A stretch of DNA of 64,000 bases from a phage, in the sequence record PZ452606.1; one strand, written 5' to 3'. This document shows, in pieces, positions 8,005 to 61,169 of this stretch (the first letter of the stretch is position 1; each line of letters begins with the position of its first letter). The notes under the pieces are model-generated. The model was not told where the DNA came from and did no database searches. It saw nothing but the letters and a program-made list of their open reading frames with translations. Made by a program: the position numbers and the translations under genes.

Positions 8005-8017
8005 TCTTTGACGATTT

Positions 8018-8037
8018 AAGGGACCTTCGGGTCCCTT
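8018..8037 (+). terminator. rho-independent terminator after gene 23 (UUCG tetraloop)
   Basis: AAGGGACC-TTCG-GGTCCCTT followed by a T-rich run. Confidence 0.8.
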
Positions 8038-8052
8038 TAGTTGTTTTTATGG

Positions 8053-8060
8053 TATAAATA
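8053..8060 (+). promoter_or_regulatory. T4-type late promoter for gene 24
   Basis: Exact TATAAATA directly after the gene 23 terminator. Confidence 0.7.
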
Positions 8061-8087
8061 AATCATATAAACCAAAAGGAAAGCGCA

Positions 8088-12826: not shown

Positions 12827-12855
12827 TAGATATATTTATTACATGGTATTTAGAC

Positions 12856-14367
12856 ATGACTGACATTAAAGTACATTTTTATGATTTTAGTCACGTGAGA
12901 ATTGATTGTGAAGAAAGTACATTTCATGAACTCCGTGATTTCTTTAGCTTTGAAGCTGATGGGTATCGTTTTAATCCGAAGTACAAATATGGCAACTGGG
13001 ATGGACGAATCCGTCTTTTAGATTATAATCGTCTTCTTCCATTCGGCTTAGTCGGGCAAATTAAAAAGTTCTGTGATAACTTTGGCTATAAAGCCTGGAT
13101 TGACCCGCAAATTAACGAAAAAGAAGAATTATCAAGAAAAGATTTTGATGAATGGCTTTCTAAATTAGAAATCTATTCAGGAAATAAAAGAATTGAACCA
13201 CACTGGTATCAAAAAGATGCAGTGTTCGAAGGATTAGTTAATCGTCGTAGAATTCTTAATCTTCCAACATCTGCAGGTAAATCTTTAATTCAAGCTTTGC
13301 TTGCGCGATATTATTTGGAAAATTATGAAGGTAAAATTCTTATCATTGTTCCAACAACTGCTCTGACAACTCAGATGGCTGATGACTTCGTTGACTATCG
13401 TTTATTCAGTCATGCAATGATAAAGAAAATTGGTGGCGGAGCATCAAAAGATGATAAATATAAAAATGATGCACCAGTCGTTGTTGGTACATGGCAAACT
13501 GTAGTAAAACAACCAAAAGAATGGTTCTCACAGTTTGGAATGATGATGAATGATGAATGCCATCTTGCTACAGGAAAAAGTATTTCATCTATCATATCAG
13601 GTTTAAATAACTGCATGTTCAAATTTGGTCTATCTGGTTCATTACGTGATGGCAAAGCCAATATCATGCAGTATGTTGGAATGTTTGGTGAAATATTTAA
13701 GCCAGTAACGACTTCTAAGTTAATGGAAGATGGACAAGTAACTGAGCTAAAAATTAATAGTATTTTTCTTCGCTATCCTGATGAGTTCACTACTAAATTA
13801 AAGGGAAAAACTTATCAAGAAGAAATAAAAATTATTACGGGGCTTAGTAAAAGAAATAAATGGATCGCTAAATTAGCTATTAAGCTTGCGCAAAAAGATG
13901 AAAACGCTTTTGTCATGTTTAAACATGTATCACATGGTAAAGCTATTTTCGATTTAATTAAAAATGAATACGATAAAGTTTATTACGTATCAGGGGAAGT
14001 TGATACCGAAACCCGCAATATAATGAAAACCTTAGCTGAAAATGGTAAAGGAATAATTATAGTAGCTAGTTATGGTGTATTTTCTACTGGTATTTCAGTT
14101 AAAAATCTGCATCACGTTGTTTTAGCGCACGGTGTTAAATCAAAAATCATTGTATTACAAACAATCGGTCGTGTATTACGTAAGCATGGTTCTAAGACAA
14201 TAGCAACAGTCTGGGACCTCATAGATGATTGTGGTGTTAAGCCAAAATCTGCTAATACGAAAAAGAAATATGTTCATTTGAACTATCTTTTAAAACACGG
14301 CATTGATCGTATTCAGCGCTACGCAGATGAAAAATTCAATTACGTAATGAAAACAGTTAATTTATAA
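12856..14367 (+). CDS. uvsW: UvsW DNA/RNA helicase (SF2)
   Basis: 503-aa ORF; Walker A-like LPTSAGKS and DEAH-box-like MNDECH motifs; TATAAATA late promoter at 12819. Confidence 0.92.
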   Translation: MTDIKVHFYDFSHVRIDCEESTFHELRDFFSFEADGYRFNPKYKYGNWDGRIRLLDYNRLLPFGLVGQIKKFCDNFGYKAWIDPQINEKEELSRKDFDEWLSKLEIYSGNKRIEPHWYQKDAVFEGLVNRRRILNLPTSAGKSLIQALLARYYLENYEGKILIIVPTTALTTQMADDFVDYRLFSHAMIKKIGGGASKDDKYKNDAPVVVGTWQTVVKQPKEWFSQFGMMMNDECHLATGKSISSIISGLNNCMFKFGLSGSLRDGKANIMQYVGMFGEIFKPVTTSKLMEDGQVTELKINSIFLRYPDEFTTKLKGKTYQEEIKIITGLSKRNKWIAKLAIKLAQKDENAFVMFKHVSHGKAIFDLIKNEYDKVYYVSGEVDTETRNIMKTLAENGKGIIIVASYGVFSTGISVKNLHHVVLAHGVKSKIIVLQTIGRVLRKHGSKTIATVWDLIDDCGVKPKSANTKKKYVHLNYLLKHGIDRIQRYADEKFNYVMKTVNL

Positions 14368-23220: not shown

Positions 23221-23273
23221 CCTCATGTTATGTCAGTAAGATTACTGTAACACAACACGAGGGACTTGTAAAC
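23221..23273 (-). repeat. 53-bp intergenic repeat, copy A (second copy at 38546-38598, 52/53 identical)
   Basis: CCTCATGTTATGTCAGTAAGA[T/C]TACTGTAACACAACACGAGGGACTTGTAAAC present at both loci immediately 5' of minus-strand genes. Confidence 0.9.
23238..23273 (-). promoter_or_regulatory. T4 early-type promoter candidate (GTTTAC -35-like, TGnTACAGT -10-like) within 53-bp repeat, copy A
   Basis: Minus strand GTTTAC-17 nt-TTACAGT followed by GAGG RBS and the alt.-3-position ORF. Confidence 0.45.
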
Positions 23274-25330
23274 TACATCTTGAACTTTTTAGACATTCCG
23301 TTGATGCTAACCAAAGAAGCCAAGATTTGAGAAACTTCGTTTTCCTCTTCTTTTGATTCTTCTACAAGGAATTGATTAAACCCAGCCATTGGACGAACTT
23401 CACCAGTTTCCATTAGATGATCGCCATCATATACCGATTCTTCTAATTGTTCAGAAGGAGGAACGATTGTGCCTTCGATTAGATACTTGTTATAAGCAGT
23501 TTCTTTCATCATGTACGTGCTTACTTTATTAATCTTCAACAAAATTCCACGCGGTAGAATAACTTCAGCTTCTGATGGAAATCCTGATAAATGACCTGGA
23601 ACGATAACTTTGATTCGTTCAGCCCCTTTAATTACCATACCTACGCTAGTTTCAGCATCTTCATTAGCATATGTAGAATGACTACCCATATGCATCAAAT
23701 CTTCTGCATCAACGGAACCTTCTCCTTCACCAGAAAATACTGCGCCGGAATCATCTAGAGCCATATAGTTTTTACCATGCTCACCGAAGATATTTGGTTT
23801 AAGCGATGTGGATACGAAGTTCTTGAAATAGAACATTTTATTTTCAATATTATGACGTAAAGTTTTAAAGGTAACTTCTTGTCCGCGATAAAGCGTAGTT
23901 CCTGGAGGAAGAACTGAACCTTTAGCAAATGCAGAATCCAACGTCTCGATGTGCTTAATAGCTCGTTCCATATATTCTTCACGGGTAGAATCTGGTTTAC
24001 CCAAGAGGAACGAGTTCATTTCAACATATGAATCTGCACAATAATCTTCAATTACATCAGACTCAGCCTGAGTTAATCCTTTTGGAGTTACTTCGGTGCT
24101 TGCGTATTCATATGCCTGAGCAGCAGATTCATTAATCAATTTATAAATGCTATTCATGACAAATTGAATAATAGCTACTTTTTCGTCTGGCGTGGCTTTA
24201 GAACCTTTAACTAAATCATTGATAATTTTCTTAATAACATCAAAGCTATTAGAAATATTAATGTCAGCTAGATCGCTCAAAATTTTATCGGTTTTATAAT
24301 CAAAAAATTCTTTATTCTTTAAATATTCTTGAGAACCTTGATGTGTTATATCGCTCTGCAGTCTGATAGACGGATCACGTAAACGTGCATGGGCCAATGC
24401 AATATGATTTCGGAAGCTTTCTAGTTCATAATCGTTAGATTTAAAACGAGAAGCACTTCTCATACCACCGATAGCTCCTTTGCCGAAGTTGGAACCAATC
24501 TGAATAACGCCAGAGTTCATTGGTCCTTCTGCTTTATATACCGGAACTTTAGATTCAAACTCTTGATATTTCTTAGCGGCGAAGCTATCGCCCTGGAGTG
24601 AGGCATCGACAGTAGAATATTGAGCTTGCGCTGCTAATCGACGACTAATTTTAGTTTTCTGAATAACAGCTTGATCAGTGCGCTTATCATTTTCTAAAGC
24701 AATAGAAGCAGCAACAGCGACAGCTTTAGGAACAGCATTACCTGTTTTAACGTCTACATAAACATCACCAACCTTTGATTCAACTTTTGTGAATAACTCA
24801 GTTGAAATAGGAGGTACACCTGGAATGTCTTCTAAATTGGCATTTTTACGGTAAACCATAATATATGCGTACTTTTTATCATAGTCCCAGATTTCCTTTA
24901 AAAGAACATATCGACCTGCTCCTTTAGTACGTACTAAACGGTCAGCAATAACTTGCATTTGACGAGCTGCGCCATTTGTTTTACTCTTTAGTACGCGGAA
25001 TAGGCATGCGTCGATTTTATACTGCTTCATTGTTTGAAGAGCAGTATCAAAAACAGCATTAATGACGCCAATTGGATTTCCACCCAAGTTTCTAAGCTTA
25101 ACCAGCGATAATTTCTCGTTGACACCTATCATTACGATATGCATCATTTTATCGCCTGGCTTAACGTTTTTATTCGTATCACCACCAGAGGTGTATGTAC
25201 AAAATCTAAATCCAGGAAGCACGCTTTCTTCGCCGGCTTGAATAGCAAAAATTTGTGGTATTTTATGCTTAGGATTTAAGTTAACAACCGGCGCCGAAGC
25301 GCCGTCAAATAATTCTGTAATAAGTTCCAT
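23273..25330 (-). CDS. Alt-like ADP-ribosyltransferase paralogue (685 aa)
   Basis: N-terminal third near-identical in pattern to the adjacent 698-aa ORF; C-terminal ART R/S/E triad candidates: YRGQ, FVSTSL, PSEAEVILPRG. Confidence 0.8.
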   Translation of the reverse strand: MELITELFDGASAPVVNLNPKHKIPQIFAIQAGEESVLPGFRFCTYTSGGDTNKNVKPGDKMMHIVMIGVNEKLSLVKLRNLGGNPIGVINAVFDTALQTMKQYKIDACLFRVLKSKTNGAARQMQVIADRLVRTKGAGRYVLLKEIWDYDKKYAYIMVYRKNANLEDIPGVPPISTELFTKVESKVGDVYVDVKTGNAVPKAVAVAASIALENDKRTDQAVIQKTKISRRLAAQAQYSTVDASLQGDSFAAKKYQEFESKVPVYKAEGPMNSGVIQIGSNFGKGAIGGMRSASRFKSNDYELESFRNHIALAHARLRDPSIRLQSDITHQGSQEYLKNKEFFDYKTDKILSDLADINISNSFDVIKKIINDLVKGSKATPDEKVAIIQFVMNSIYKLINESAAQAYEYASTEVTPKGLTQAESDVIEDYCADSYVEMNSFLLGKPDSTREEYMERAIKHIETLDSAFAKGSVLPPGTTLYRGQEVTFKTLRHNIENKMFYFKNFVSTSLKPNIFGEHGKNYMALDDSGAVFSGEGEGSVDAEDLMHMGSHSTYANEDAETSVGMVIKGAERIKVIVPGHLSGFPSEAEVILPRGILLKINKVSTYMMKETAYNKYLIEGTIVPPSEQLEESVYDGDHLMETGEVRPMAGFNQFLVEESKEEENEVSQILASLVSINGMSKKFKM

Positions 25331-25333
25331 GAT

Positions 25334-27430
25334 TTATCCTTGAACGAACTTGTAAGGCATGTTTGTAATATCTATGCAAGACGCAATAATTCCAAGAGAT
25401 GATTCTACTTTCTGTTTAACATTTGATGAAACAAATGATGCAAAGTCAACTCTGTCTTCTATTTCAATATCACCTGTCATTGCAACTACTTCGCCAGTTT
25501 CCATTAAACGGTCACCGTCATAAATTACCGATTCGGTGAGTTCTTCGGTGGTCATAACTTCAGCTTGAATGAGTTTTGTATTATTAGACGTGGTTCCGTC
25601 ATTATTAGAAGCATCAGTTATTTTATTAACTTTGACCATCAATCCGCGCGGTAGAATAACTTCGGCTTCTGTTGCTATTCCGAGACTTCCTGGATATACA
25701 ACATTAACTTTATGAGCTCCATCAATTGCCCATCCTATTTGAACTTTAACGTATTCAGGATTTTCTTTATACGCTCTTATTTCGTTTGGATTAATAGTTA
25801 TTCCTTCTTCATTTTTATCAACTGTTAATTCGTTACGAGCTTCTGGTTCTAAAAGACCAATACCAGCATGTGTAATTCCAAAACGTCCAAAAATGATAGG
25901 AGTTAAAGAAGTAGATACAAAATTTCTGAAATAGAACACTTTATTTTTAACTAACGCTTCATATATAGGAGCAGTCATACTTTGAGCACGATAAACTGTA
26001 ATGCCTTCTGGTATACGGTCACCATTTTCAAAAGCTGAATCTAAGTTATTTATAGCAGATTCAATTTCTTTTTCGCTCATTACATCGTATCGTTCTGGAT
26101 TGTAACGACCTAAAAGAAGATTATTAATGTCTGTATATCCTGAACCGCAATATTCTCTAATGCCACGCTTTTGTGATGGAGTATATTTAGAACCATCGCG
26201 GGCAATAGTAATATCAATCATTGGACCGGCACCAATTCCAGAAAAACTGTAAATCATTCGTTTGAGGAATTTAGTTTTTGCTGCGTTCCAGGAATTTTTA
26301 GTTATTTCTTCCCAGACTTCATCTGGTTGCCCTTTACGAGTTTTATTATGTTTATCAAGCCAATTATCTTTATATTCTTCAAAGAATTTATTAACAGCTG
26401 CTGCGTATTTCTCTAAACATTTTATTGAAGTAGTTGGTTCATTTTTGATTGCGTTAAAAATTACATCTTTAATTTTTTCGGAAACTTCATCAACCTCACT
26501 TTTTGAAAAGAATTTATAGTCATAGTGAAGTTCATTCGCAGTTCCTTCGGCAATAATTTTTGCTGCCTTAGTTTTAGAAGCTAATGAATTAATTCCAAGC
26601 TTCATTTCTTCTGCTTCGGGAATTAAAGGAGCGGTAGCAGGTTTATTGAAATTAGCTGCGGTAGATTCATACTTCTGGAATAATTCACTTTCAAATCTAG
26701 AAGATTCCAATGATTGACTTTGCGCAATTGCTCTACGGGAAATTTTAACTTTAACGATTACAGCTTGGTCAGAACGTTTATCATTTTCCTGCGCAATAGA
26801 TGCTGCAATTGCCTCATTTTTAGTTACTTGGGCTCCAGTATCTTTATTGATATAAACATCACCGACTTTCGATTCAACTTTAGTAAAGAGCTCGGTACTA
26901 ATTTCTGGAACTCCCGGAATGTCTTCTAGTGATACATTTTTGCGATGTATAAGAATATATGCATACTTTTTATCATAATCCCAGAGTTCCTTAAGAAGGA
27001 CGTATCTGCCACCTGAACGACTACGGATAAGTCTATCAGCAATAACTTGAATTTGTCGAGCTTGACCAGCGGTTTTAGACTTAAGAATACGAAGCATACA
27101 AGCATCAATTTTATACTGACGCATTGTTTGCATTGCAACAGTAAAAACTGAATTGATATAATTAATTGGGCTTGGACCAAGACCTTTTAATTTAGCAATT
27201 GAACCTTTAGCAGTTAATGTAAAAGGAACAATATGCATCATTTTATCGCCCATCTTTAAATCGCGATTAGTATCACCTCCAGATGTATAGGTACATAAAC
27301 GAAAGCCTGGCTGTTCAATTGCATCATCAACGTGAACTGAAAAAATTTGCGGTATTTTCTTCTTTGGATTTAAGTTTGTAATCGGAAGAGTAGTATCTTC
27401 GTCAAATAATTCTGTAATAAGTTCCATCAT
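25334..27430 (-). CDS. alt: Alt-like ADP-ribosyltransferase (698 aa; probable alt)
   Basis: Position next to gene 30; ART motifs YRAQ, FVSTSL, ATEAEVILPRG; N-terminus MMELITELFDE; minus-strand TATAAATA late promoter upstream; which paralogue corresponds to T4 alt is uncertain. Confidence 0.8.
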   Translation of the reverse strand: MMELITELFDEDTTLPITNLNPKKKIPQIFSVHVDDAIEQPGFRLCTYTSGGDTNRDLKMGDKMMHIVPFTLTAKGSIAKLKGLGPSPINYINSVFTVAMQTMRQYKIDACMLRILKSKTAGQARQIQVIADRLIRSRSGGRYVLLKELWDYDKKYAYILIHRKNVSLEDIPGVPEISTELFTKVESKVGDVYINKDTGAQVTKNEAIAASIAQENDKRSDQAVIVKVKISRRAIAQSQSLESSRFESELFQKYESTAANFNKPATAPLIPEAEEMKLGINSLASKTKAAKIIAEGTANELHYDYKFFSKSEVDEVSEKIKDVIFNAIKNEPTTSIKCLEKYAAAVNKFFEEYKDNWLDKHNKTRKGQPDEVWEEITKNSWNAAKTKFLKRMIYSFSGIGAGPMIDITIARDGSKYTPSQKRGIREYCGSGYTDINNLLLGRYNPERYDVMSEKEIESAINNLDSAFENGDRIPEGITVYRAQSMTAPIYEALVKNKVFYFRNFVSTSLTPIIFGRFGITHAGIGLLEPEARNELTVDKNEEGITINPNEIRAYKENPEYVKVQIGWAIDGAHKVNVVYPGSLGIATEAEVILPRGLMVKVNKITDASNNDGTTSNNTKLIQAEVMTTEELTESVIYDGDRLMETGEVVAMTGDIEIEDRVDFASFVSSNVKQKVESSLGIIASCIDITNMPYKFVQG

Positions 27431-35963: not shown

Positions 35964-37166
<1,203 letters not shown>

Positions 37167-37170
<4 letters not shown>

Positions 37171-38601: not shown

Positions 38602-40189
<1,588 letters not shown>

Positions 40190-40196
40190 AATAAAA

Positions 40197-40212
40197 TGGG
40201 CCTTGCGGCCCA
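40197..40212 (-). terminator. stem-loop between nrdB and denA
   Basis: TGGGCC-TTGC-GGCCCA immediately upstream of the denA ATG. Confidence 0.45.
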
Positions 40213-40216
40213 CTCC

Positions 40217-41395
40217 TTAAAAATATTTTTTAAAACTCATCATAACTTTATCATCAACATCATTATCAATCTGTGCTACAAGGTAAGATGACAGTTCTAC
40301 TTCTTGCGGTGCAGATTGAACATTATCAGAATTAAGATATTCACGAATCCAAGGATATGGATGTTTAACCGGAGCATCGGTAATTGGGCATGGAAGACCG
40401 CACTGTTTCATACGAGATACAGTTAAGTAATCAATAAAGCTCCACATGCTATTTGTATTTAATCCAGGAACATCGCCATCTTTAAATAAATGAACTGCCC
40501 AATCTTTTTCTTGGCGGTTAACTTCCATGAAAATATCAACTGCTTCTTGTTCACACTCTTGAGCAATTTTAACCCATTGATCGCCATCAGTACCAGATTG
40601 AAGTTGACGAATAATATATTGTGTACCTTTAAGATGAAGCTGCTCATCACGTGCAATGAACTTCATAATCTTGGCATTACCTTCCATGATTTCCATGTTC
40701 TTATGGAAGTTAAAGGTACATGCGAAAGATACATAAAAACGAATAGCTTCCAATGCGTTGATTACATGCAAACAGAGGTAAAGAGATTTCATTAGCTCAC
40801 GCTTCCAATATGTCTCATGCTCAATAGCATCTTCAATAACGTCTTCGTCTGCATTAATTTCTTTTTGGTATTCGATATCAGCTTTAGCGTTTTCCCAATA
40901 ACGAGTTTTAATCAGAACATCATCATAATAACGTCCAATGGATTCAGCACGTTTCATAATAGCTTCATCTAATACAATTTCATCAAATACCTTCGATGGA
41001 TCAGTATAAAGATTTCGCATGATATGAGTATATGAACGACTGTGAATAGTTTCACTAAAAGTCCATGTAGCAACCCATGTATCAAGGCTTGGGTCTGAAA
41101 TTAATGACATAAGTACAGCAGATGGCGCGCGACCCTGAATGCTATCTAAAAGTGATTGATACTTCAAGTTGTTAGTAAAAATATTTTGCTGATACTGAGG
41201 AAGCTTATTAAACTGTGCAGCATCCATCATCAAGTTTACTTCTTCAGGACGCCAGAAAAATGATAAAGATTTCTCAATAAGTTCTTCAAATACTCTATGC
41301 CGTTGAATATCATATCGAGCTAAACCCAATCCAGAACCAAAAAACATCGGCTCAGTCAAAATATTAACAGGGGATGTATTAAAAACTGTACTCAT
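40217..41395 (-). CDS. nrdB: ribonucleotide reductase small subunit (uninterrupted)
   Basis: 392-aa continuous ORF with di-iron ligand-like E/H-rich helices; no intron interruption. Confidence 0.92.
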   Translation of the reverse strand: MSTVFNTSPVNILTEPMFFGSGLGLARYDIQRHRVFEELIEKSLSFFWRPEEVNLMMDAAQFNKLPQYQQNIFTNNLKYQSLLDSIQGRAPSAVLMSLISDPSLDTWVATWTFSETIHSRSYTHIMRNLYTDPSKVFDEIVLDEAIMKRAESIGRYYDDVLIKTRYWENAKADIEYQKEINADEDVIEDAIEHETYWKRELMKSLYLCLHVINALEAIRFYVSFACTFNFHKNMEIMEGNAKIMKFIARDEQLHLKGTQYIIRQLQSGTDGDQWVKIAQECEQEAVDIFMEVNRQEKDWAVHLFKDGDVPGLNTNSMWSFIDYLTVSRMKQCGLPCPITDAPVKHPYPWIREYLNSDNVQSAPQEVELSSYLVAQIDNDVDDKVMMSFKKYF

Positions 41396-42033
41396 TTAGA
41401 ATCCTTAAATTTACATTTATCATAATGCCATCTTAGAGCATTGCCTTTATTAACCTTCTTGCCACAATGCGGACAAGGCGGATACTCTATACTTTGCTTA
41501 GTTCTCAAAGAAATCAAATCACGAGTTTCTTTAGTATGAGGAACATCTCTTGTCGGAGAGATTGTACCATACATCGGATTAAGCACGCCGACTTTAGCAG
41601 CAGCTATATTCTTTTTAGCTTCTTCGGTTTTAGGTTTTCTCATGCGAGCTAAATGCTCTTTGGTAAATTTCCTTCCTTTAAGAGCTCTACTTATCTTTTC
41701 CCTGGTTTCTATAGAAACTTCACGTCCTATAGCAGCTTCAGATAAACGTCGTCTACCTAATTCGTATAGTTGAGAAGAAATTTTATATGAGCGATTTTTA
41801 CCAGTCAAGCACATTAAACCAAAAGCTTTCTTTAATCCTGGGGTGTCATATATTTTGCATAAAAGCCAATGAGCTATAAAATGCTCTCTACCTGTTAATT
41901 CAACTAAATTTTCTTTATCATCAGAACCTCCCATACATCTAGGGATTATATGATGAGTCTCTTTATATTCAGATAAAGGTTCCCGAGCCTGAGCTCGGGA
42001 AATTAGGTCATTATAGATTTTTTGATAATTCAT
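41392..42033 (-). CDS. mobE: free-standing HNH homing endonuclease (mobE-like)
   Basis: 213-aa ORF between nrdA and nrdB; HNH core HHIIPRCMGGSDDKENLVELTGREHFIAHW; C-terminal CPHCGKK...H..C zinc-finger-like; ATGA overlaps at both ends. Confidence 0.8.
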   Translation of the reverse strand: MNYQKIYNDLISRAQAREPLSEYKETHHIIPRCMGGSDDKENLVELTGREHFIAHWLLCKIYDTPGLKKAFGLMCLTGKNRSYKISSQLYELGRRRLSEAAIGREVSIETREKISRALKGRKFTKEHLARMRKPKTEEAKKNIAAAKVGVLNPMYGTISPTRDVPHTKETRDLISLRTKQSIEYPPCPHCGKKVNKGNALRWHYDKCKFKDSK

Positions 42034-44297
42034 TACAATTTACACGCTGCACAATCGTCGGCTTTTGGAGTTTCTATTTCATAATCATCAGTACCAGAAC
42101 CATCACGGGTATTATGATAATAGAAATTTTTTCCGCCAAAATACCAAAAATACAAAAGGTCATCAATCATTATTGACATTGGAACCTTTCCTTTTGGAAA
42201 AATCTGTGGGTCATAATATGTATTCGCCGAAGCTGATTGACAAACCCATTTCAGCATAATAGCTACCTGCGTAAGATAAGGTTTATTACCTTTCTTAGCT
42301 AATTTCCATGTATAGTCGTAAAGGTCTATGTTATGCTCAATATTGGGCACGACTTGATTAAAGGAGCCCTCTTTTGATTCTTTAACAGAGACTGGTCCAC
42401 GTGGAGGCTCGATACCGTTTGTACTGTTAGAAACTTGGGAAGATGACTCACATGGCATAAGTGCTGATAATGTGCTATTACGGATGCCAAAGAGCTTAAG
42501 GTCTTCCCGCAGCGACGACCAGTCACAAACGTATTTTGGAGCTGCGATTTGGTCAATCTTTTTATTGTACCAGTCGATAGGTAATTCGCCTCGAGACCAA
42601 CGAGTGTCTGAATAATATTCGCAAGGTCCTTTTTCTTTGGCGAGCTTAATGGATGCTTTAATGAGTCCATACTGTAATCTCTCAAATAGTTCATGTGTTA
42701 AATCGTTAGCATCTTCATAAGAAGCAAAGTTACTTGCCAGCCAAGCTGCATAGTTGGTAACACCCACACCGAGGTTACGGCGCTTTTTAGCTTTTTCTGC
42801 TTCAGGAACTGGATATCCTTGGTAATCCAAAAGATTATCAAGAGCACGAACTTGGACTTCTGCCAATTCATTAATTTTATCTTGGTCTTGCCAATCGAAG
42901 TTATCCAGCACAAATGCAGATAACGTGCACAATCCAATTTCAGCATCGGGGCTATTCACATCATTTGTTGGAATAGCAATTTCACAGCACAAGTTACTCT
43001 GACGAATAGGTGCCTTTTCACGAATAAATGGAGTATAGTTATTCGTATTATCAATGAACTGCACATAAATCCTTGCTGTTCCTGAGCGTTCAGTCATGAG
43101 CAATTCAAATAGTTCACGGGCTTTAATGCGCTTTTTACGAATATTAGGGTCTTTTTCTGCTGCTTCGTATAATTCACGGAAACGGTCTTGGTCTTTAAAA
43201 TAAGAATAATAAAGCTCGCCACCCATTTCATGCGGACTGAACAAAGTAATGTAGTCGTTCTTTCCAAAACGTTCCATCATTAGATCATTCAGTTGAACAC
43301 CATAATCCATATGACGAATGCGGTTTTCTTCTACGCCTTTGTTATTTTTCAAAACGAGAAGATTTTCAACTTCCAAATGCCAAATAGGATAATAAGCAGT
43401 AGCAGCGCCGCCACGAATTCCACCCTGTGAGCATGATTTAACTGCAGTCTGAAAATGTTTCCAAAAAGGAATAACACCGGTATGGCGTACTTCACCCATG
43501 CCAATCTTAGAACCTTCGGCACGAATCATACCAACGTTAATACCAATTCCAGCGCGTTTAGAGATATATTCAACAATTGAAGCGGAAGCCTTATTGATAG
43601 ACTTCAGCGAATCACCTGCCTCAATAACAACACATGAACTAAACTGTCGAGTCGGAGTACGACAACCAGCCATAATAGGAGTTGGCAGTGAAATCTGTCG
43701 AGTAGATACTGCTTCATAAAAACGGATAACATGTTTTAGTCTATCAACAGGTTCATCTTGATGCAGTGCCATTCCAATAGCCATAAATGCAAACTGTGGA
43801 GTTTCATAAATTTGACCAGTGGTTTTATCTTTAACTAGATATTTTTCTTTTAATTGCATCGCCCCGGAATAAGTAAATTCCATATCCCGCTCGTGCTTAA
43901 TTTTTGATTCTAAAAATGTAATTTCTTCTGCTGAATATTTTGACAATAATTCAGGGTCATATTTACCTGCATTTACACAATAAGAAATATGGTCAATAAA
44001 TGAACGCGGTTCATACTGCCCATAAACATGCTTACGAAGAGCAAACATTAAACAACGTGCAGCTACATATTGGTAATCAGGCTCTTCAACCGAAATAGAA
44101 TTCGCAGCGGCCTTAATGACAATAGTCTGAATATCATCAGTTGTCATTCCATCACGGAGATAAGATTTAATATTTTCATATAATTCATAAGGATCTACTG
44201 ATGTTCCTTCAGCTGCCCAAGATAAAACTTTAATAATTTTTTGTGGGTCAAAGCTCTGAGAAACACCACTACTTTTGATAACATTAATTAATTGCAT
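42033..44297 (-). CDS. nrdA: ribonucleotide reductase large subunit
   Basis: 754-aa ORF; size matches T4 NrdA; class I RNR active-site Cys-containing motifs. Confidence 0.95.
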   Translation of the reverse strand: MQLINVIKSSGVSQSFDPQKIIKVLSWAAEGTSVDPYELYENIKSYLRDGMTTDDIQTIVIKAAANSISVEEPDYQYVAARCLMFALRKHVYGQYEPRSFIDHISYCVNAGKYDPELLSKYSAEEITFLESKIKHERDMEFTYSGAMQLKEKYLVKDKTTGQIYETPQFAFMAIGMALHQDEPVDRLKHVIRFYEAVSTRQISLPTPIMAGCRTPTRQFSSCVVIEAGDSLKSINKASASIVEYISKRAGIGINVGMIRAEGSKIGMGEVRHTGVIPFWKHFQTAVKSCSQGGIRGGAATAYYPIWHLEVENLLVLKNNKGVEENRIRHMDYGVQLNDLMMERFGKNDYITLFSPHEMGGELYYSYFKDQDRFRELYEAAEKDPNIRKKRIKARELFELLMTERSGTARIYVQFIDNTNNYTPFIREKAPIRQSNLCCEIAIPTNDVNSPDAEIGLCTLSAFVLDNFDWQDQDKINELAEVQVRALDNLLDYQGYPVPEAEKAKKRRNLGVGVTNYAAWLASNFASYEDANDLTHELFERLQYGLIKASIKLAKEKGPCEYYSDTRWSRGELPIDWYNKKIDQIAAPKYVCDWSSLREDLKLFGIRNSTLSALMPCESSSQVSNSTNGIEPPRGPVSVKESKEGSFNQVVPNIEHNIDLYDYTWKLAKKGNKPYLTQVAIMLKWVCQSASANTYYDPQIFPKGKVPMSIMIDDLLYFWYFGGKNFYYHNTRDGSGTDDYEIETPKADDCAACKL

Positions 44298-44614
44298 AAG
44301 TCCTCAACTTGAAAATCGTCTTTAAACAATCGGTTAACTATATGAGCTATTATATCACCATGACACGGCTTTGGTTTACATGTGCATCCTAGCCTCATTC
44401 CACGTAAAGGCTCTAAATGTGCTTTAGTTATTTCTCCGGATTTAATTCGACGTATAAAATCTTTTTTGAATAATTCAATGGCAGCCTCCCGGCTGCCAGC
44501 ATCTTTACCGACGTAATTTCCCCAAAATGTACCGCGGTGAATATTAACATCAAAGTCGGATTTATATTTATTCACTACTCGGCATAGACGGCCCACGCTG
44601 GAATAATTCGTCAT
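44288..44614 (-). CDS. hypothetical Cys/His-motif protein (nrdA.1 position)
   Basis: 108-aa ORF; [13 protein letters not shown] motif suggests metal binding; overlaps upstream ORF by 47 nt (start may be later). Confidence 0.5.
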
Positions 44615-44843
44615 ATTGTTTTTCCGTTAATACAGTAATATCATAGTAACAATCGGAAGAAGTTTTAACTGTGGAAATTTTATTATCAAAATACTCACGA
44701 GTCATTTTATGAGTATAGTATTTTTTACCATAAATGGTAATAGGCTGTTCTGGTCCTGGAACTTCTAACTCGCTTGGGTTAGGAAGTGTAAAAAGAACAA
44801 CGCCAGAAGTATCTTTAAATCGTAAAATCATACATCCTCGCAA
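44568..44843 (-). CDS. hypothetical protein (nrdA.2 position)
   Basis: 91-aa ORF. Confidence 0.5.
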
Positions 44844-44851
44844 TAATAAAA

Positions 44852-45712
44852 TTACACCGCCATTTTTCCTTTAATTGGCAGATGAGATACATAGTTGTTA
44901 AGAACAAAATTATGAGGCTTTGCAAATTGACTCAACCAAAATACCTGCGATTCTGTGTCCCATTCATCAAATTCATCTGGAAATTTTAATTGTAATTCGC
45001 ATAAATCCATAGGTTCACGACGTAAAATTTCTTTACATTGTTCTACGTGATTCATATAGATATGAGTATTACCACCAGAAAATATCAAATCTCCAGGAAT
45101 AAGATTACACATTTTAGCTACAATATGAACTAACGTAGCATATGATGCAATATTAAATGGAAGACCGAGGAAAACATCTACCGAACGTTGATACCACTGC
45201 AAATCTAAATAGCCATTACGCACATTAAACTGATAGAACATATGACAAGGCGGTAATGCCATATATTTAAGTTCAGCTGGATTCCACGCAGAAACAATTT
45301 GACGCCTATCATTTGGCAGTTTTTTAATACGATCAACAACTTCTATAATTTGGTCTACACCGCCAAAATCACGCCACTGTTTTCCATAAATTGGACCAAG
45401 TTCACCGCTATGATATCCTAAATCTTTTGCCTGATTTTCGTAATTTTCATCCCAGACTGTTTTGCCTTGGATTAACGAATCGTGTTGAATTAATCGTAAA
45501 TCATTGACATTTGTGCTTCCTGATAAAAACCATATTAGCTCAGCAATGCATGCATTCCAGGCGAGCTTTTTAGTTGTTACTGCAGGAAAGCCTTTAGTTA
45601 AATCCCAACGCAATTTAGTACCGAACAGAGCAATTGTTCCTGTGCCTGTGCGATCATCGGTTTCATAGCCATTTTCAAAAATGTCTTTAATTAAATCTTG
45701 GTATTGTTTCAT
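44852..45712 (-). CDS. td: thymidylate synthase (uninterrupted)
   Basis: 286-aa continuous ORF; TS motifs (PPCH active-site Cys region [11 protein letters not shown]); no group I intron. Confidence 0.95.
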
Positions 45713-45757
45713 TTAGTACCTTATATAAATTATAATACATTTTATGAAGCTAAATAA

Positions 45758-46105
45758 TCAATACGGTTTAGCATCAAATTTTCTCTCAATTTCAGGTGTG
45801 AAATATAATTCTTTACCGCGTTTGGAAAAGCGACCAATAATATGATAATTATTCTCATCAAACGTAATATTACCAATATCCATAGCTTTCAACCAAATAT
45901 CGATATTTCTATCCAGCTTTATGTCAAAATTCCAATACGGAGAACTATTACCAAAAATACTACAAGCGGATTCAGTGAAACAGCTACTATAAATCTTGTC
46001 TTTAGGAACTACTAATTGATAGACACCTTTAATAAACTGAGGACCTTGCCATTTTGGCTGTTTCGCGTCTTTTTCTAATAGAATAGGATAATAATTAAAA
46101 TTCAT
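45758..46105 (-). CDS. hypothetical protein inserted between frd and td
   Basis: Track ORF 45758-46117 begins at GTG; first ATG at 46105 gives 115 aa (MNFNYYPILLEKDAKQPKWQG...); no recognisable motif. Confidence 0.5.
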   Translation of the reverse strand: MNFNYYPILLEKDAKQPKWQGPQFIKGVYQLVVPKDKIYSSCFTESACSIFGNSSPYWNFDIKLDRNIDIWLKAMDIGNITFDENNYHIIGRFSKRGKELYFTPEIERKFDAKPY

Positions 46106-46125
46106 ATTTTCCGCCACGCGTTATT

Positions 46126-46952
<827 letters not shown>

Positions 46953-46963
46953 ATTATCTCCTA

Positions 46964-47296
46964 TTAAAAAGGATCAGGAACATATCCGCTAGCTTTAATC
47001 ATTTTAATTAACGTTAACATTCCTTTGTTAACTGCTCGTGAGATTTCATCAAAAACTTCATCACTAAAAAGTTCTAACACGCCCTTCTGAACTTTTAATT
47101 TACAGCCAACAATTTCTTCATCGCCTATAGTAAATTCATTACCACCAATTCCACCGAAAAACTTAATTACACCAGTTAACTGTCTTCCACGAGAATATGG
47201 GTCGTGTGATAAAGTAATATGAGTCACCCCGGGTACAGTTTTAAATTGGCAGCGAATATTTACTTGTGAAATTCCAGTTACATGAATGTCAGACAT
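46964..47296 (-). CDS. hypothetical protein (frd.2 position)
   Basis: 110-aa ORF. Confidence 0.55.
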   Translation of the reverse strand: MSDIHVTGISQVNIRCQFKTVPGVTHITLSHDPYSRGRQLTGVIKFFGGIGGNEFTIGDEEIVGCKLKVQKGVLELFSDEVFDEISRAVNKGMLTLIKMIKASGYVPDPF

Positions 47297-49396: not shown

Positions 49397-49470
49397 TTTT
49401 ATTTCCTTTTTAATTTAATTAACAGTTGGTGCTATGACGATGTATGACCTCATAGCTGGTCAGTGAGATA
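49397..49470 (-). promoter_or_regulatory. gene 32 autoregulatory translational operator (AU-rich leader)
   Basis: mRNA leader ...AAUUAAAUUAAAAAGGAAAUAAAAAUG with repeated UUAAA-type elements, preceded by a GC-containing structured segment. Confidence 0.55.
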
Positions 49471-49479
49471 ATTATAATC

Positions 49480-49487
49480 TATTTATA
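49480..49487 (-). promoter_or_regulatory. T4-type late promoter (minus strand) upstream of gene 32
   Basis: Reverse-complement TATAAATA ~85 nt upstream of the gene 32 ATG. Confidence 0.55.
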
Positions 49488-49495
49488 ATAAGCAA

Positions 49496-57488: not shown

Positions 57489-60400
57489 ATGGCTACTTTA
57501 AAACAAATACAATTTAAAAGAAGCAAAACCGCAGGTGCACGTCCTGCTGCTTCAGTATTAGCCGAAGGTGAATTGGCTATAAACTTAAAAGATAGAACAA
57601 TTTTTACTAAAGATGATTCAGGAAATATCATTGATCTAGGTATTGCTAAAGGCGGTCAAATTGATGGAAATGTAACTATTGATGGAACTTTACGCGTCAA
57701 TGGACCAATAAACAACTTTGGAAATTTTTCTACAAGTGGTACTATTACGGCAAGTAATATTGTTTCTGCTACAGTATTCAGATCAACATCCGGTTCATTT
57801 TATACAAGAGCAATAAATGATACTGCAAATGCCCATCTTTGGTTTGAAAATACAAATGGCTCAGAACGTGGCGTTTTATATTCAAAACCGCAGTCTGAAA
57901 ATGAAGGCGTAATTACAATGCGTGTTCGTCAAGGAACCGCTGCGGGAGCTCAAAATTCAGAATTTCATTTCATTTCTACTGATGGCGGTATCTTCCAGGC
58001 ACGTAAGTTAACTGCTTTAACTTCTATTAGTACACCAACTATTAGTGTTAATTTAATTAATCATGATTCTAAATCATTTGGACAATACGATTCACAATCT
58101 TTGGTTAACTATGTTTATCCTGGAACCGGTGAAACAAATGGTGTAAACTATCTTCGTAAAGTTCGAGCTAAATCAGGTGGAACTATTTACCATGAAATTT
58201 GTACAGCTCAGACTGGGCTAGCTGATGAAGTTTCTTGGTGGACTGGTAATATACCGTTATTTAAACTATACGGTATTCGTAACGACGGTAGAATGATTAT
58301 CCGCAATAGCTTGGCCATTGGTACTGTGACTGAAGGATACCCGTCAAGCGATTATGGAAATACCGGGGTAATGGGAGATAGGTATTTAGCTCTTGGCGAT
58401 AATGCTTCTGGACTTAAATGGGTTCGTACTGGCGTTATTGACTTAATGGCTAACGGTATTTCTGCGGCGACTATTATTAATAATGGTATTAATAGTACTA
58501 AAAAATTGATGGTTGGTTATAGTCGAGATTCTGGTTCTACTTGGGATTTCCCAAATAACAACCAAGCAATGTTTACTGCGCGTACCGATGTTGATGGTAA
58601 TAATAACGGTGATGGTCAAACTCATATCGGTTATAGCAGTAATTCTAAAATGTATCACTATTTCCGTGGTACAGGTCGTATGTCCGTTAGTATGGGCGAT
58701 GGACTTCTTGTTGAGCCTGGCATTTTAGATATTAAAACTGGTTCAAATTCATTAAATTTGCGTGCTGATGGTACTGTTGCATCTACTCAAGAAGTTAAGC
58801 TTAATAATGGGTTATTCTTTAATAGTAGTTCTTCTAACGCCGGTCTTAAATTTGGCGCTTCTTCTTCTATAAATGGAACTAAGACAATACAATGGAACGC
58901 AGGCACCCGCCCGGGTCAGAACAAAAGCTATGTGACCATGAAAGCATGGGGCAATGCATTTGAGGATAACACTAATAAAAACAGAGAAACTGTATTTGAA
59001 TTAGGCGATGGACAGGGTTGGCATTTTTATTCACAACGCGTTGCTCCTGTAGCAGGTTCTACTGTCGGTTCTGTTGAATTTGCGATGGCCGGTAGTTTAT
59101 TAACTTCTGGTTCTATTACAACAAGATCTTCCCTGAATGCTGATAATGGATTGTCTGTAAATGGACAAGCTAAATTTGGTGGAACGGCAGATGCATTAAG
59201 AATTTGGAATGCTGAATACGGTGCTATTTTCCGTCGCTCAGAAAGTAATCTTTATATTATACCGACTCCTAAAGATGCTGGAGAATCGGGCGGTATAAGT
59301 AATCTTAGACCATTGATAATAGAACTGAACACTGGCACAGTTAAAATGTCGCATGATGTTCATTTAGGAGATTCTGGATCTGGTACAGGACTTTTACAAG
59401 TAAGTAATAGTCTTAAAACTATTAAAATGATATGTCCAGTAACTATTAATGAACGCAATGCAGCGCTTACCCTGGATTCTCCTTCATCTTCTTCTGCTAA
59501 TTATTTACAGGGTTCTAAAGCTGGAACTAGATCATGGTACGTTGGTCTTGGCGGCGCTGGAAATGATTTATCTCTTTATAGCCAATCTTATGGACATGGT
59601 CTTGTTATAAGCGATAATTTCGTGTCAATCAGTAAACCTCTTAAAGTTGGAAATGCCCAACTAGGAACTGATGGTAATATTACTAGCGGTTCAGGAAACT
59701 TTGCCAACTTGAACACCACACTAAACCGTAAAGTTAATTCTGGATTTATTACTTATGGAGCAACCGCTGGATGGTATAAGTTTGCAACAGTAACAATGCC
59801 ACAATCCACTTCGACGGTCTTCTTTAAAATAGTTGGAGGTTCTGGATTTAATAGCGGATTATTCACACAATGTAATATTGCTGAAATTGTTTTACGTACT
59901 AGTAATGAAAGACCTGCTGACTTAAATGCTGCATTATACACAAGAACAATTGGAGCTGCATTTAAAGATATTGCAGTTAATAACGTCTCTGGAGATACAT
60001 ATGACATTTATGTTTCTGCTGGAACATATTGTAATCAATTAGCTTGTGAGTGGTCATGTACCGAAAATGCTACTGTTAGTGTTATTGGTATTAACTCATC
60101 TACACAATCACCTGTAGATGCTCTTCCAGATACAGCAGTTAATGGTCAAGTTGCTAATGTTCTTAATAACTTGGTTGATCGCGGTAAAGTTAAGCGTTAT
60201 GAAGCCGATTCTGAAATAGCTATTAATAGCCAAACCGGTATTCGTATCAGAAGCAATGCCGATAAAACTGGTTCTGTGGCTACAATGTTACGAAATGATG
60301 GTGGTAGTTTTTATATTCTGTTTACAGATAAAAATGCCACTGATGGCGCAGCAACTGTTAACGGCGATTGGAATAGTAAACGTCCTTTCGCAATTAACTT

Positions 60401-61169
60401 AACAACCGGCGAAGTGATGATGAATAACGGCATAGCTGTTCGCAGCGCTGCTTTATTCTATAATAGCATAAACGTCAAAGATAATGGTTCTATTAACTTT
60501 GATAAGTCCGGCGCTAACCCGAGAAACATGCGTATATTCCATGCAGGTGATGGCACTCGTGGTAATCGCATTGAAATTGCTGATGAAACAAACTATATTG
60601 CTTACTTCCAAAAATTACCTGGTGGTCAAAATCAGGTTTCATTCAATAGTGCTACACTTTCTGGATTAACACAGTGTAATCAATTTGGTGTTAACACAAC
60701 AAACGCACTTGGTGGAAACAGTATAACATTTGGTGATACTGATACTGGTATTAAGCAAAATGGCGATGGATTATTAGACATATATGCGAACAACGTGCAA
60801 GTGTTCCGTTTCCAAAATGGTGATTTGTACTCATATAAAAATATAAATGCTCCAAACGTTTATATTCGTTCTGATATTCGTTTAAAATCTAACTTCAAAC
60901 CTATCGAAAATGCACTTGATAAAGTTGAAAAACTCAATGGTGTCATTTATGATAAAGCTGAATACATCGGTGGAGAGGCAATTGAAACTGAAGCGGGTAT
61001 TGTAGCTCAAACGTTACAAGACGTTTTACCAGAAGCCGTCCGTGAAACAGAAGACAGCAAGGGTAATAAAATACTCACTGTTTCTTCTCAAGCCCAGATT
61101 GCTCTTCTGGTTGAAGCTGTGAAAACACTTTCTGCTCGTGTAAAAGAACTTGAATCTAAACTTTTGTAA
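57489..61169 (+). CDS. 37: long tail fibre distal subunit gp37 (T2/T6-type, with C-terminal intramolecular chaperone domain)
   Basis: 1226-aa ORF, longer than T4 gp37 as I recall; C-terminal ~100 aa (from SDIRLKSNF...GIVAQTLQDVLPEAV) resemble S74-peptidase-type self-cleaving chaperone domains. Confidence 0.9.
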   Translation: MATLKQIQFKRSKTAGARPAASVLAEGELAINLKDRTIFTKDDSGNIIDLGIAKGGQIDGNVTIDGTLRVNGPINNFGNFSTSGTITASNIVSATVFRSTSGSFYTRAINDTANAHLWFENTNGSERGVLYSKPQSENEGVITMRVRQGTAAGAQNSEFHFISTDGGIFQARKLTALTSISTPTISVNLINHDSKSFGQYDSQSLVNYVYPGTGETNGVNYLRKVRAKSGGTIYHEICTAQTGLADEVSWWTGNIPLFKLYGIRNDGRMIIRNSLAIGTVTEGYPSSDYGNTGVMGDRYLALGDNASGLKWVRTGVIDLMANGISAATIINNGINSTKKLMVGYSRDSGSTWDFPNNNQAMFTARTDVDGNNNGDGQTHIGYSSNSKMYHYFRGTGRMSVSMGDGLLVEPGILDIKTGSNSLNLRADGTVASTQEVKLNNGLFFNSSSSNAGLKFGASSSINGTKTIQWNAGTRPGQNKSYVTMKAWGNAFEDNTNKNRETVFELGDGQGWHFYSQRVAPVAGSTVGSVEFAMAGSLLTSGSITTRSSLNADNGLSVNGQAKFGGTADALRIWNAEYGAIFRRSESNLYIIPTPKDAGESGGISNLRPLIIELNTGTVKMSHDVHLGDSGSGTGLLQVSNSLKTIKMICPVTINERNAALTLDSPSSSSANYLQGSKAGTRSWYVGLGGAGNDLSLYSQSYGHGLVISDNFVSISKPLKVGNAQLGTDGNITSGSGNFANLNTTLNRKVNSGFITYGATAGWYKFATVTMPQSTSTVFFKIVGGSGFNSGLFTQCNIAEIVLRTSNERPADLNAALYTRTIGAAFKDIAVNNVSGDTYDIYVSAGTYCNQLACEWSCTENATVSVIGINSSTQSPVDALPDTAVNGQVANVLNNLVDRGKVKRYEADSEIAINSQTGIRIRSNADKTGSVATMLRNDGGSFYILFTDKNATDGAATVNGDWNSKRPFAINLTTGEVMMNNGIAVRSAALFYNSINVKDNGSINFDKSGANPRNMRIFHAGDGTRGNRIEIADETNYIAYFQKLPGGQNQVSFNSATLSGLTQCNQFGVNTTNALGGNSITFGDTDTGIKQNGDGLLDIYANNVQVFRFQNGDLYSYKNINAPNVYIRSDIRLKSNFKPIENALDKVEKLNGVIYDKAEYIGGEAIETEAGIVAQTLQDVLPEAVRETEDSKGNKILTVSSQAQIALLVEAVKTLSARVKELESKLL

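Follow-up and report, generated by a model that had tools for sequence, protein, structure and literature searches.

An apparent trace of MobE homing in the intron-free td-nrdB locus of a T4-like phage

The nucleotide-metabolism cluster and its relatives

The locus described here is very probably the standard cluster of a Tequatrovirus other than T4, arranged as frd-td-nrdA.2-nrdA.1-nrdA-mobE-nrdB-denA, with td and nrdB intron-less, as they commonly are, with MobE as the product of the HNH open reading frame (ORF) between nrdA and nrdB, and with an apparent scar of MobE homing. Overall, the finding is an ordinary one that was known already, namely the nucleotide-metabolism cluster of a T4-like phage. 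Gene order in the window (the whole 64-kb stretch of DNA that was analyzed) was colinear with T4 98.5-162.2 kb based on blastn. The nearest relative overall was Sf22 (96.9% over 25 kb), no identical record was found, and the best database identity for mobE and nrdB jointly was 97.7%.

At least 13 of the best 40 database records matched the entire 6.5 kb in a single unbroken piece, a count in which GenBank and RefSeq copies of one phage are tallied separately. The intron-free, mobE-positive layout is common to many sequenced Tequatroviruses, and T4, termed 'an oddity' with its 15 endonucleases (PMC2988022), is the outlier; intron-free td and nrdB with few seg genes is the common state. In T2 and Sf22, as in the window, td (286 aa) and nrdB (392 aa) lack introns, td and frd flank the same extra ORF, and nothing seg-sized is found between genes 32 and 59. 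Unlike the window, both phages have 51 bp of spacer between nrdA and nrdB in place of mobE, and their sequence over nrdB nt 1-129 is different (33 substitutions).

The cluster includes, on the minus strand, homologues of nrdA.2 (44568..44843; DUF5496, Pfam PF17600, E 2e-62; annotated in T4, T6, and vB_Eco_CP) and nrdA.1 (44288..44614; DUF4326, PF14216, E 5.5e-22). The true start of nrdA.2 is probably the ATG at 44831, which matches the annotation of the relatives. The gene nrdA (42033..44297, minus strand) encodes a class Ia ribonucleotide reductase large subunit of 754 aa with the Pfam ATP-cone, lgN, and lgC domains, and most of its 100-nt bins were 95-100% identical to nrdA of T-even phages. 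Next to nrdB lies denA (39779..40213, minus strand), which encodes endonuclease II with 99.3% identity to T4 DenA and a Pfam GIY-YIG match; this GIY-YIG enzyme is not a homing endonuclease.

Empty intron sites and the homing-endonuclease complement

The first-pass annotation had read td and nrdB as single continuous ORFs and held that the group I introns of T4 and their endonucleases were absent, and the alignments agree on both counts. Thymidylate synthase (td, 44852..45712, minus strand, 286 aa) was uninterrupted, colinear with spliced T4 td, and matched Pfam PF00303 (Thymidylat_synt) over its full length (1-266/266, E 1e-92). The ribonucleotide reductase small subunit (nrdB, 40217..41395, minus strand, 392 aa) was likewise a single ORF, although of mosaic origin, with a full-length match to PF00268 (Ribonuc_red_sm), and was aligned with T2, T4, T6, and vB_Eco_CP. 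In td, the 1017-nt intron of T4 and T6 appeared as a single gap at nt 549/550 (45163..45164, minus strand; ...TTCCTCGGT/CTTCCATTT...), and blastn against T4 found 143547-144563, the td intron with I-TevI, missing exactly at window 45163/45164. In nrdB, the T4 intron was also a single gap, at nt 676/677 (40719..40720, minus strand; ...TCTTTCGCAT/GTACCTTTAAC...), where T4 138458-139057 (the intron with I-TevIII) was missing exactly at 40719/40720. An Rfam scan by E-value gave two Intron_gpI (RF00028) matches for T4 as control (E 9e-8 and 2e-6; 40.3 and 35.7 bits) and none at E<=1 in window 39700-46200. With the Rfam gathering threshold (50 bits), matches were zero in the window and the T4 control alike, as T4's own introns score below this cut-off. 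Together with the continuous ORFs, these results reveal no cryptic intron in td or nrdB.

We consider it improbable that introns were once present in td, nrdB, or both and were then precisely lost. Loss is part of the life-cycle models for homing endonucleases, and the gaps are exact at the splice junctions. However, the exon flanks at both sites carry the polymorphisms of intron-less T2, Sf22, and vB_Eco_CP, not those of intron-bearing T4 and T6; because intron gain co-converts the flanks, a phage that once carried the introns should resemble T4 or T6 there. Loss through replacement, by recombination with an intron-less phage, is conceivable.

Both insertion sites are thus present and empty, and they differ in their prospects as homing targets. 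I-TevI requires C1 and G5 of its cleavage motif and cuts at -23/-25 (PMC5009752, PMC2988022). We read CAACG at -27 to -23 from the td insertion site (45186..45190, minus strand), so that the window td has both a 5'-CNNNG-3' motif 23/25 nt upstream and the binding region, with the T4 motif and spacing intact; the intron and I-TevI are absent. In a 20-bp stretch centred on this site, T4 is matched at 16 positions by the window and at 15 by T2, whose td undergoes efficient conversion when T4 and T2 are crossed, and over -27 to +30 the window and T4 differ at seven synonymous positions. It is plausible from this sequence that the window td allele is an I-TevI target. T6, unlike the window, contains the td intron.

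Around the I-TevIII cleavage positions (-14/-16), nrdB of the window and of T4 have the same exon sequence, and the two nrdB sites differ by two synonymous changes, at -2 and -5; here too, intron and endonuclease are absent. T4 I-TevIII is defective, and the nrdB intron is mobile only via MobE nicking of a mobE-less nrdB, at a nick mapped to nrdB nt 122-126 with a polymorphic codon 42 (PMC2790892). At the equivalent position (41270..41274, minus strand), the window has the mobE-linked variant GAG AAA TCT TTA, with AAA (Lys) as codon 42; this variant would presumably shield the genome from its own MobE. Because T4 I-TevIII is defective and the nick site carries mobE-linked sequence, homing of the T4 nrdB intron into this phage is unlikely, and plausibly only an intact I-TevIII, e.g., that of RB3, could target the window nrdB. 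The expectation that both intron-less alleles would be homing targets is therefore supported for td, with CAACG kept and 16/20 bp matched, but not for nrdB as a recipient from T4.

Within the corresponding interval, T4 carries six endonuclease genes (segD, segE, I-TevIII, mobE, I-TevI, and segG), of which the window has only mobE. As the earlier reading stated, no seg-type GIY-YIG ORF lies between inh and uvsW, the T4 segE site (12843..12861; 19 bp unmatched versus T4), or between genes 32 and 59, the segG site (49460..49494; 35 bp unmatched). The segD site between genes 23 and 24 (8016..8075; 60 bp unmatched) is likewise devoid of segD. Using T4 SegD, SegE, SegG, I-TevI, and I-TevIII as tblastn queries, we obtained no significant matches in the 64 kb (E>=1.9 for the Seg proteins, with DenA as the sole GIY-YIG protein found), and a search for further seg- or mob-like genes across the same 64 kb yielded none. 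The complement does differ from that of T4, as had been proposed, although the HNH gene is not part of the difference, since T4 has mobE at the same site. In a mixed infection with T4, the td intron, segD, segE, and segG should be readily acquired, and gain of the nrdB intron through MobE is unlikely.

MobE and its expression signals

Sequence comparison identifies the HNH ORF (41392..42033, minus strand, 213 aa) as MobE, T4's own enzyme at the identical site, in the allele of T6 and KAW1E185 (vB_EcoM_KAW1E185). The ORF matched Pfam HNH (PF01844, E 3.3e-5, 24.4 bits versus a cut-off of 21.4), NUMOD3 (E 1.9e-8, at about 103-121), and phrog_655 'homing endonuclease' (E 1e-66). The HNH residues H27, H28, N42, and H51, located within ETHHIIPRCMGGSDDKENLVELTGREH, have the I-TevIII counterparts H26, H27, N39, and H48. 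The modular DNA-binding region comprises NUMOD3 and a zinc finger of the form CX2CX12HX3C at 187-207 (CPHCGKKVNKGNALRWHYDKC), which fits the CX2CX12-13HX3C pattern of the I-TevIII fingers. In a search of solved structures with MobE, insignificant matches to the HNH motif alone were obtained (E>=0.2).

A tblastn comparison with MobE of resequenced T4 gave 71.1% identity over 232 aa (E 5.6e-105), i.e., full-length homology, which upholds the view of this ORF as a mobile-endonuclease gene and answers the proposed comparison with MobE. Identity is complete over the N-terminal 47 residues, which contain the H-H-N of the HNH motif; H51 is conserved too, and the last 84 residues, including the zinc finger, contain 2 differences. 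In contrast, residues from about 55 to 130 have diverged, and the window protein (213 aa versus 232 aa in T4) lacks one NUMOD3-containing stretch of 17 aa, leaving a shorter linker. Because the linker is unlike that of T4 MobE, target specificity could differ. A split or degraded endonuclease, like the 'mobE + nrdB.1' of the T4 RefSeq record, was considered and rejected, as the RefSeq split stems from two single-base differences, neither of which occurs in three T4 records from resequencing.

The same 642-nt allele occurs in KAW1E185 (DNA 99.8% and protein 100% identical), Lutter (DNA 99.8% identical), T6 (4/213 residues different, about 98% identity), slur02/04, and vB_Eco_CP, several of which also have intron-free td and nrdB. 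That an endonuclease other than MobE, for instance phage U5 Hef or a mob paralogue, occupies the space between nrdA and nrdB is very remote. This gap is a known hotspot in which hef takes the place of mobE in some phages (PMC2988022), and over the central 75 residues the protein has little in common with T4 MobE. Against this stand the full-length match to T4 MobE (71%, E 6e-105), the conserved HNH domain, zinc finger, junctions, and hairpin, and the T6 record, which annotates the ORF as mobE; moreover, Hef, which we compared by description only, is described as a 'unique endonuclease' and not as HNH (PMC2988022).

Identification as MobE extends to the gene's setting, because T4 mobE has the same site between nrdA and nrdB, the same junctions, and the same internal hairpin sequence. 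ATGA overlaps had been reported on both sides of the gene. A genuine 4-nt ATGA overlap joins mobE to nrdB, but the nrdA/mobE junction is TAATGA (GTAATGAAT), in which the TAA stop and the ATG start share 1 nt, and the same UAAUGA junction has been described for T4 nrdA/mobE (PMC2988022). Additionally, the 5' end of mobE contains a hairpin (41980..42001, minus strand) with a 9-bp stem, a 4-nt loop, and a CCUUUAUCU tail, detected in a terminator scan and with an RNA fold of -16.7 kcal/mol (z -3.5). Its sequence is identical in T4, where it is a weak intrinsic terminator (PMC2790892), and termination is predicted for the window as well.

We infer that mobE, placed between nrdA and nrdB with the UAAUGA overlap, is promoterless. 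A sigma-70 promoter scan returned 31 sites, close to the 28 expected by chance. By analogy with T4, mobE would have no promoter of its own and would be read from nrdA transcripts, its translation would be coupled via the UAAUGA junction, and its transcripts would be damped by the 5'-end hairpin. The 3' half of mobE contains a MotA-box-like TGCTTA followed after 13 nt by TACAAT (41561..41585, minus strand), a motif conserved between the window and T4 that is a candidate middle promoter for nrdB.

The mosaic around mobE

The window was KAW1E185-like through mobE and nrdB nt 1-129 and Sf22-like from nrdB nt 183. Within nrdB nt 6-129, all 33 informative sites were of the KAW1E185 (donor) type, and over nt 130-700, 76 of 77 were of the Sf22 (recipient) type, in a comparison of three genomes, which does not show which way or when the exchange took place. 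The first tally was robust (32-33 donor, 0 recipient) to the use of T6 or vB_Eco_CP as the donor reference or T2 as the recipient reference. The second was robust with Sf22 against any donor and depends on the closest mobE-less relative, as the use of T2 as recipient gave 42-54 recipient versus 19-30 donor sites. The downstream breakpoint interval (nrdB nt 130-182; 41213..41267, minus strand) spans the conserved FFWRPEE codons, and the nrdB body beyond it is Sf22-like, unlike that of KAW1E185, Lutter, T6, slur02/04, and vB_Eco_CP.

Informative-site analysis placed the upstream breakpoint in nrdA at nt 1623-1783 (42515..42675, minus strand), and 3' of it all nine informative sites in nrdA were of the mobE-positive (KAW1E185) type. 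The KAW1E185-matching tract thus comprises the last 480-640 nt of nrdA, the whole of mobE, and nrdB nt 1-129, and it ends 4-57 nt beyond the mapped nick (nt 122-126). T4 MobE activity has been mapped in vivo only. In a mixed infection, following the T4 model, MobE would nick nrdB of mobE-less phages at nt 122-126, and repair off the mobE-positive genome would copy mobE and its flanks into the recipient. The window would then be a mobE-less, Sf22-like backbone with a KAW1E185-type tract, the apparent scar of such homing. We lean slightly toward this interpretation of the sequence, in which donor-type DNA extends from the nrdA 3' end across mobE to a point 4-57 nt past the nick as a natural MobE homing footprint.

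The mosaic might instead have arisen when co-infecting T-even phages underwent ordinary homologous recombination, independent of MobE nicking, with FFWRPEE as the longest run of identity; we regard this as possible but rather unlikely. T-even genomes recombine heavily, and the breakpoint falls in FFWRPEE, the most conserved block of 5' nrdB, where ordinary recombination would tend to resolve. Moreover, nrdA upstream of nt 1623, most of the gene, is a patchwork in which Sf22-type and KAW1E185-type sites are interleaved, indicating that recombination is frequent at this locus in any case, and td and the nrdB hypervariable block are mosaic too. Yet the switch in nrdB is abrupt, with 33/33 sites of one type and then 76/77 of the other, and lies no more than about 57 nt from the mapped MobE nick. 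It also agrees with the crossover interval of experimental MobE-dependent recombinants, as the mobE-positive, I-TevIII-negative recombinants obtained in the laboratory had crossed over within nrdB nt 1-189 (PMC2790892).

These results confirm that the intron and seg load of T4 is unusual and that the window phage carries the common, leaner set. Coming from a natural isolate, the sharp donor/recipient switch next to the nick site lends comparative support to the MobE homing model, which has so far rested on T4 x T2 crosses. Experiments to define the target and immunity of MobE have been blocked by failure to clone the protein. If the footprint is true, the 213-aa MobE allele would be active among phages in the wild, conversion tracts could be shorter than 60 nt on the nrdB side, and a comparison of many natural recombinants could establish what MobE targets and what determines immunity to it.

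Organization of the cluster and its relatives

By blastn, the 64-kb window was colinear with positions 98,504-162,205 of T4 (NC_000866), mostly at 91-98% identity. The cluster under study lies on the minus strand and comprises, in gene order, frd (46126-46707), an extra ORF (45758-46117), td (44852-45712; 286 aa), nrdA.2, nrdA.1, nrdA (42033-44297), an HNH ORF (41392-42033), nrdB (40217-41395; 392 aa), and denA (39779-40213). About 500 phage records, nearly all from Escherichia/Shigella Tequatroviruses, matched the 6.5-kb cluster at 90% identity or more; none of them was identical (top identity, 96.8%), and the nearest relative across 25 kb was Shigella phage Sf22 (96.9%). At least 13 of the 40 best-matching records (a phage with both a GenBank and a RefSeq entry counting twice) matched the whole 6.5 kb as a single unbroken piece, including vB_Eco_CP, slur02/04/11/13, FL08, FelixPlatter, AdolfPortmann, KAW1E185, and Ge15. 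Since these phages are likewise intron-free and mobE-positive, the arrangement in the window is ordinary, already known, and common.

Four small minus-strand ORFs had no T4 counterpart (45758-46117 in the td/frd gap, 46707-46952 and 46964-47296 in the frd/frd.1 gap, and 36868-37170 in the pseT/pseT.1 gap); they matched PHROG families of unknown function (phrog_1928, 3183, 3566, and 2364), and T2, T6, and Sf22 have annotated homologues. The ADP-ribosyltransferase gene alt was present as two full-length tandem paralogues (23273-25330 and 25334-27430, both minus strand; 685 and 698 aa), whereas T4 has a single alt and, as the remains of a duplicate copy, the short alt.-1 and alt.-2. The distal tail fibre region (57489-61169 and 61200-61985, plus strand) was not T4-like, and the C-terminal part of gp37 had no close T4 match. 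The gene after gp37 (61200-61985) encodes a glycine-rich protein of 261 aa, which we take to resemble the gp38 adhesin of the T2/T6 type, not the gp38 chaperone of the T4 type.

The HNH ORF is mobE

The HNH ORF between nrdA and nrdB (213 aa), flagged in the first-pass annotation as a free-standing HNH endonuclease to be compared with MobE, is indeed MobE. It matched Pfam HNH and NUMOD3 and the PHROG family 'homing endonuclease' (E 1e-66), was 71% identical to intact T4 MobE (E 6e-105) and 100% identical to the vB_EcoM_KAW1E185 protein, and the equivalent 642-nt ORF of T6 is annotated as mobE. Compared with the intact 232-aa T4 MobE, the first 47 residues are the same, including the HNH residues H27, H28, and N42, and H51 just beyond them is conserved; the middle section is diverged, 19 residues shorter, and without one NUMOD3-containing stretch. 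The last 84 residues differ from T4 at two positions and include a zinc finger, CX2CX12HX3C; I-TevIII has been shown to bind DNA through a finger of this type. The MobE finger (41410-41475, minus strand) was weakly similar to the T4 I-TevIII zinc-finger region (tblastn E 0.024), and both fit CX2CX12-13HX3C, which suggests a common DNA-binding module in these two nrdB-targeting HNH enzymes.

Of the ATGA overlaps proposed for both sides of the gene, the one between mobE and nrdB is genuine, but the nrdA/mobE junction reads TAATGA, a 1-nt overlap; UAAUGA at this junction is a feature of T4 mobE (PMC2988022). The hairpin at the mobE 5' end (9-bp stem, 4-nt loop), also a T4 feature (PMC2790892), is the same in sequence as in T4. 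A MotA-box-like motif in the mobE 3' half, conserved with T4, may be the nrdB middle promoter.

The gene does not distinguish this phage from T4, as had been implied, because T4 also has a mobE overlapping nrdA and nrdB. The T4 RefSeq record shows a 141-aa mobE followed by an 83-aa nrdB.1, a split due to two surplus bases, one A within a run of A and one C, at NC_000866 139716-140416 (6217-6917 of L001, our reference stretch from that record). Three resequenced T4 records (T4T, MT984581, and OL964735) have one mobE of 699 nt (232 aa), with overlaps of 1 nt (nrdA) and 4 nt (nrdB); therefore, nrdB.1 seems to be an artefact of the earlier T4 sequence.

Absent introns, seg genes, and predicted intron acquisition

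Both td and nrdB were uninterrupted, with full-length Pfam matches. In alignments, the 1017-nt td intron of T4 and T6 fell in a single clean gap that follows td nt 549 (45164|45163 in the window), and the T4 nrdB intron in one that follows nrdB nt 676 (40720|40719; aligned with T4 and T6). As a second, independent test, we searched with Rfam for the catalytic core of group I introns. At the gathering score, Intron_gpI was found neither in the window nor in the T4 control; with E-value reporting, it was detected in both T4 genes (E 9e-8 and 2e-6) and not in the corresponding stretch of the window. The clean gaps and this controlled scan bear out the absence of the T4 introns. The T4 introns score 40.3 and 35.7 bits (L001 5009-5249 and 10096-10326), below the gathering score of 50 bits, so a default Rfam scan would miss both classic introns.

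As had been noted, segE is missing between inh and uvsW (19 unmatched bases in its place) and segG between 32 and 59 (35 unmatched bases); segD (genes 23/24), which the first-pass annotation did not mention, is also absent. No T4 SegD, SegE, SegG, I-TevI, or I-TevIII was found by tblastn in the 64-kb window, where DenA (99.3% identical to T4 DenA) was the sole GIY-YIG protein. T4 has 15 homing endonucleases, and no other T-even phage comes near that number (PMC2988022). In the phage collection, at 80% query coverage or more, the T4 td intron occurred in 197 records (many of them T4 laboratory clones), the T4 nrdB intron in 118, and the window mobE allele in 50. Overall, the first-pass observations were confirmed and their interpretation was supported in part.

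The T4 nrdB intron query (L001 4959-5558) also matched 38 Pectobacterium and 17 Klebsiella phage records, indicating that relatives of the nrdB intron or I-TevIII sequence exist beyond Tequatrovirus. A hypervariable nrdB block (window ~40800-40900; nt ~495-600) occurs in at least three allelic forms and shows a length polymorphism (388, 389, or 392 aa); the window form is identical to that of Sf22, 84% identical to T2, and 50-61% identical to T4, T6, vB_Eco_CP, and KAW1E185. A td C-terminal block (44901-45000; aa ~233-265) is 53% identical to T4 and T2 and 97-100% to T6 and vB_Eco_CP; T4 td reads ...KELCELVISGLPYKFRYLSTKEQLKYVLKLRPKD... where the window protein has a different 34-letter stretch.

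Both genes had been predicted as targets for intron homing. The I-TevI cleavage motif CAACG, in which C1 and G5 are critical (PMC5009752), is intact in td at -27 to -23 with the same spacing, and 16 of the 20 bp centered on the insertion site match T4, compared with 15 in T2, which gains the td intron at ~2x input in crosses (PMC2790892). Judged from these sites, td is likely susceptible to I-TevI intron homing. For nrdB, acquisition from T4 is not expected: T4 I-TevIII is defective, its intron spreads only via the MobE nick in mobE-less nrdB (PMC2790892), and the window carries mobE with a linked nick-site variant. Intact I-TevIII, as in RB3, cleaves at -14/-16; since the window is T4-identical there, with just two synonymous changes (-2 and -5), such an enzyme might cut it.

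Recombination footprint around mobE

Sf22 lacks mobE and, as in T2, has an nrdA-nrdB spacer of just 51 bp. At all positions differing between Sf22 and mobE-positive KAW1E185, the window was of KAW1E185 type at 33/33 sites in nrdB nt 6-129 and of Sf22 type at 76/77 sites in nt 130-700. The nt 1-129 tally was stable (32-33 donor type, 0 recipient) when T6 or vB_Eco_CP replaced KAW1E185, and likewise when T2 replaced Sf22. The nt 130-700 tally held for Sf22 against any donor but dropped to 42-54 recipient versus 19-30 donor type with T2, and thus depends on the closest mobE-less relative. In nrdA, the last Sf22-type site was nt 1623, and the final nine informative sites (nt 1783-2264) were of KAW1E185 type.

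The MobE-dependent nick maps to nrdB nt 122-126 of T2, and laboratory recombinants that gained mobE and not the intron had crossovers within nrdB nt 1-189 (Wilson and Edgell, PMC2790892). The downstream breakpoint of the window, nrdB nt 130-182 (41267-41213), begins 4 nt beyond that nick site. The simplest reading of the mosaic, which we favor with modest confidence from these sequence comparisons, is that a mobE-positive, KAW1E185-like phage served as the donor for repair of a nick in an Sf22-like genome; the main alternative is that ordinary recombination was resolved within the conserved FFWRPEE block. The nick-site sequence of the window, GAG AAA TCT TTA, is common to mobE-positive T6, vB_Eco_CP, and KAW1E185 and differs from the T2/Sf22 form, GAA AAG CAG/CAA TTG/TTA. 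AAA at codon 42 is one form found in mobE-containing phages, and nick-site polymorphisms have been proposed to protect the host genome (PMC2790892). A natural conversion tract of MobE type, if nick and repair is the correct reading, would be the sole mildly interesting point of this locus.
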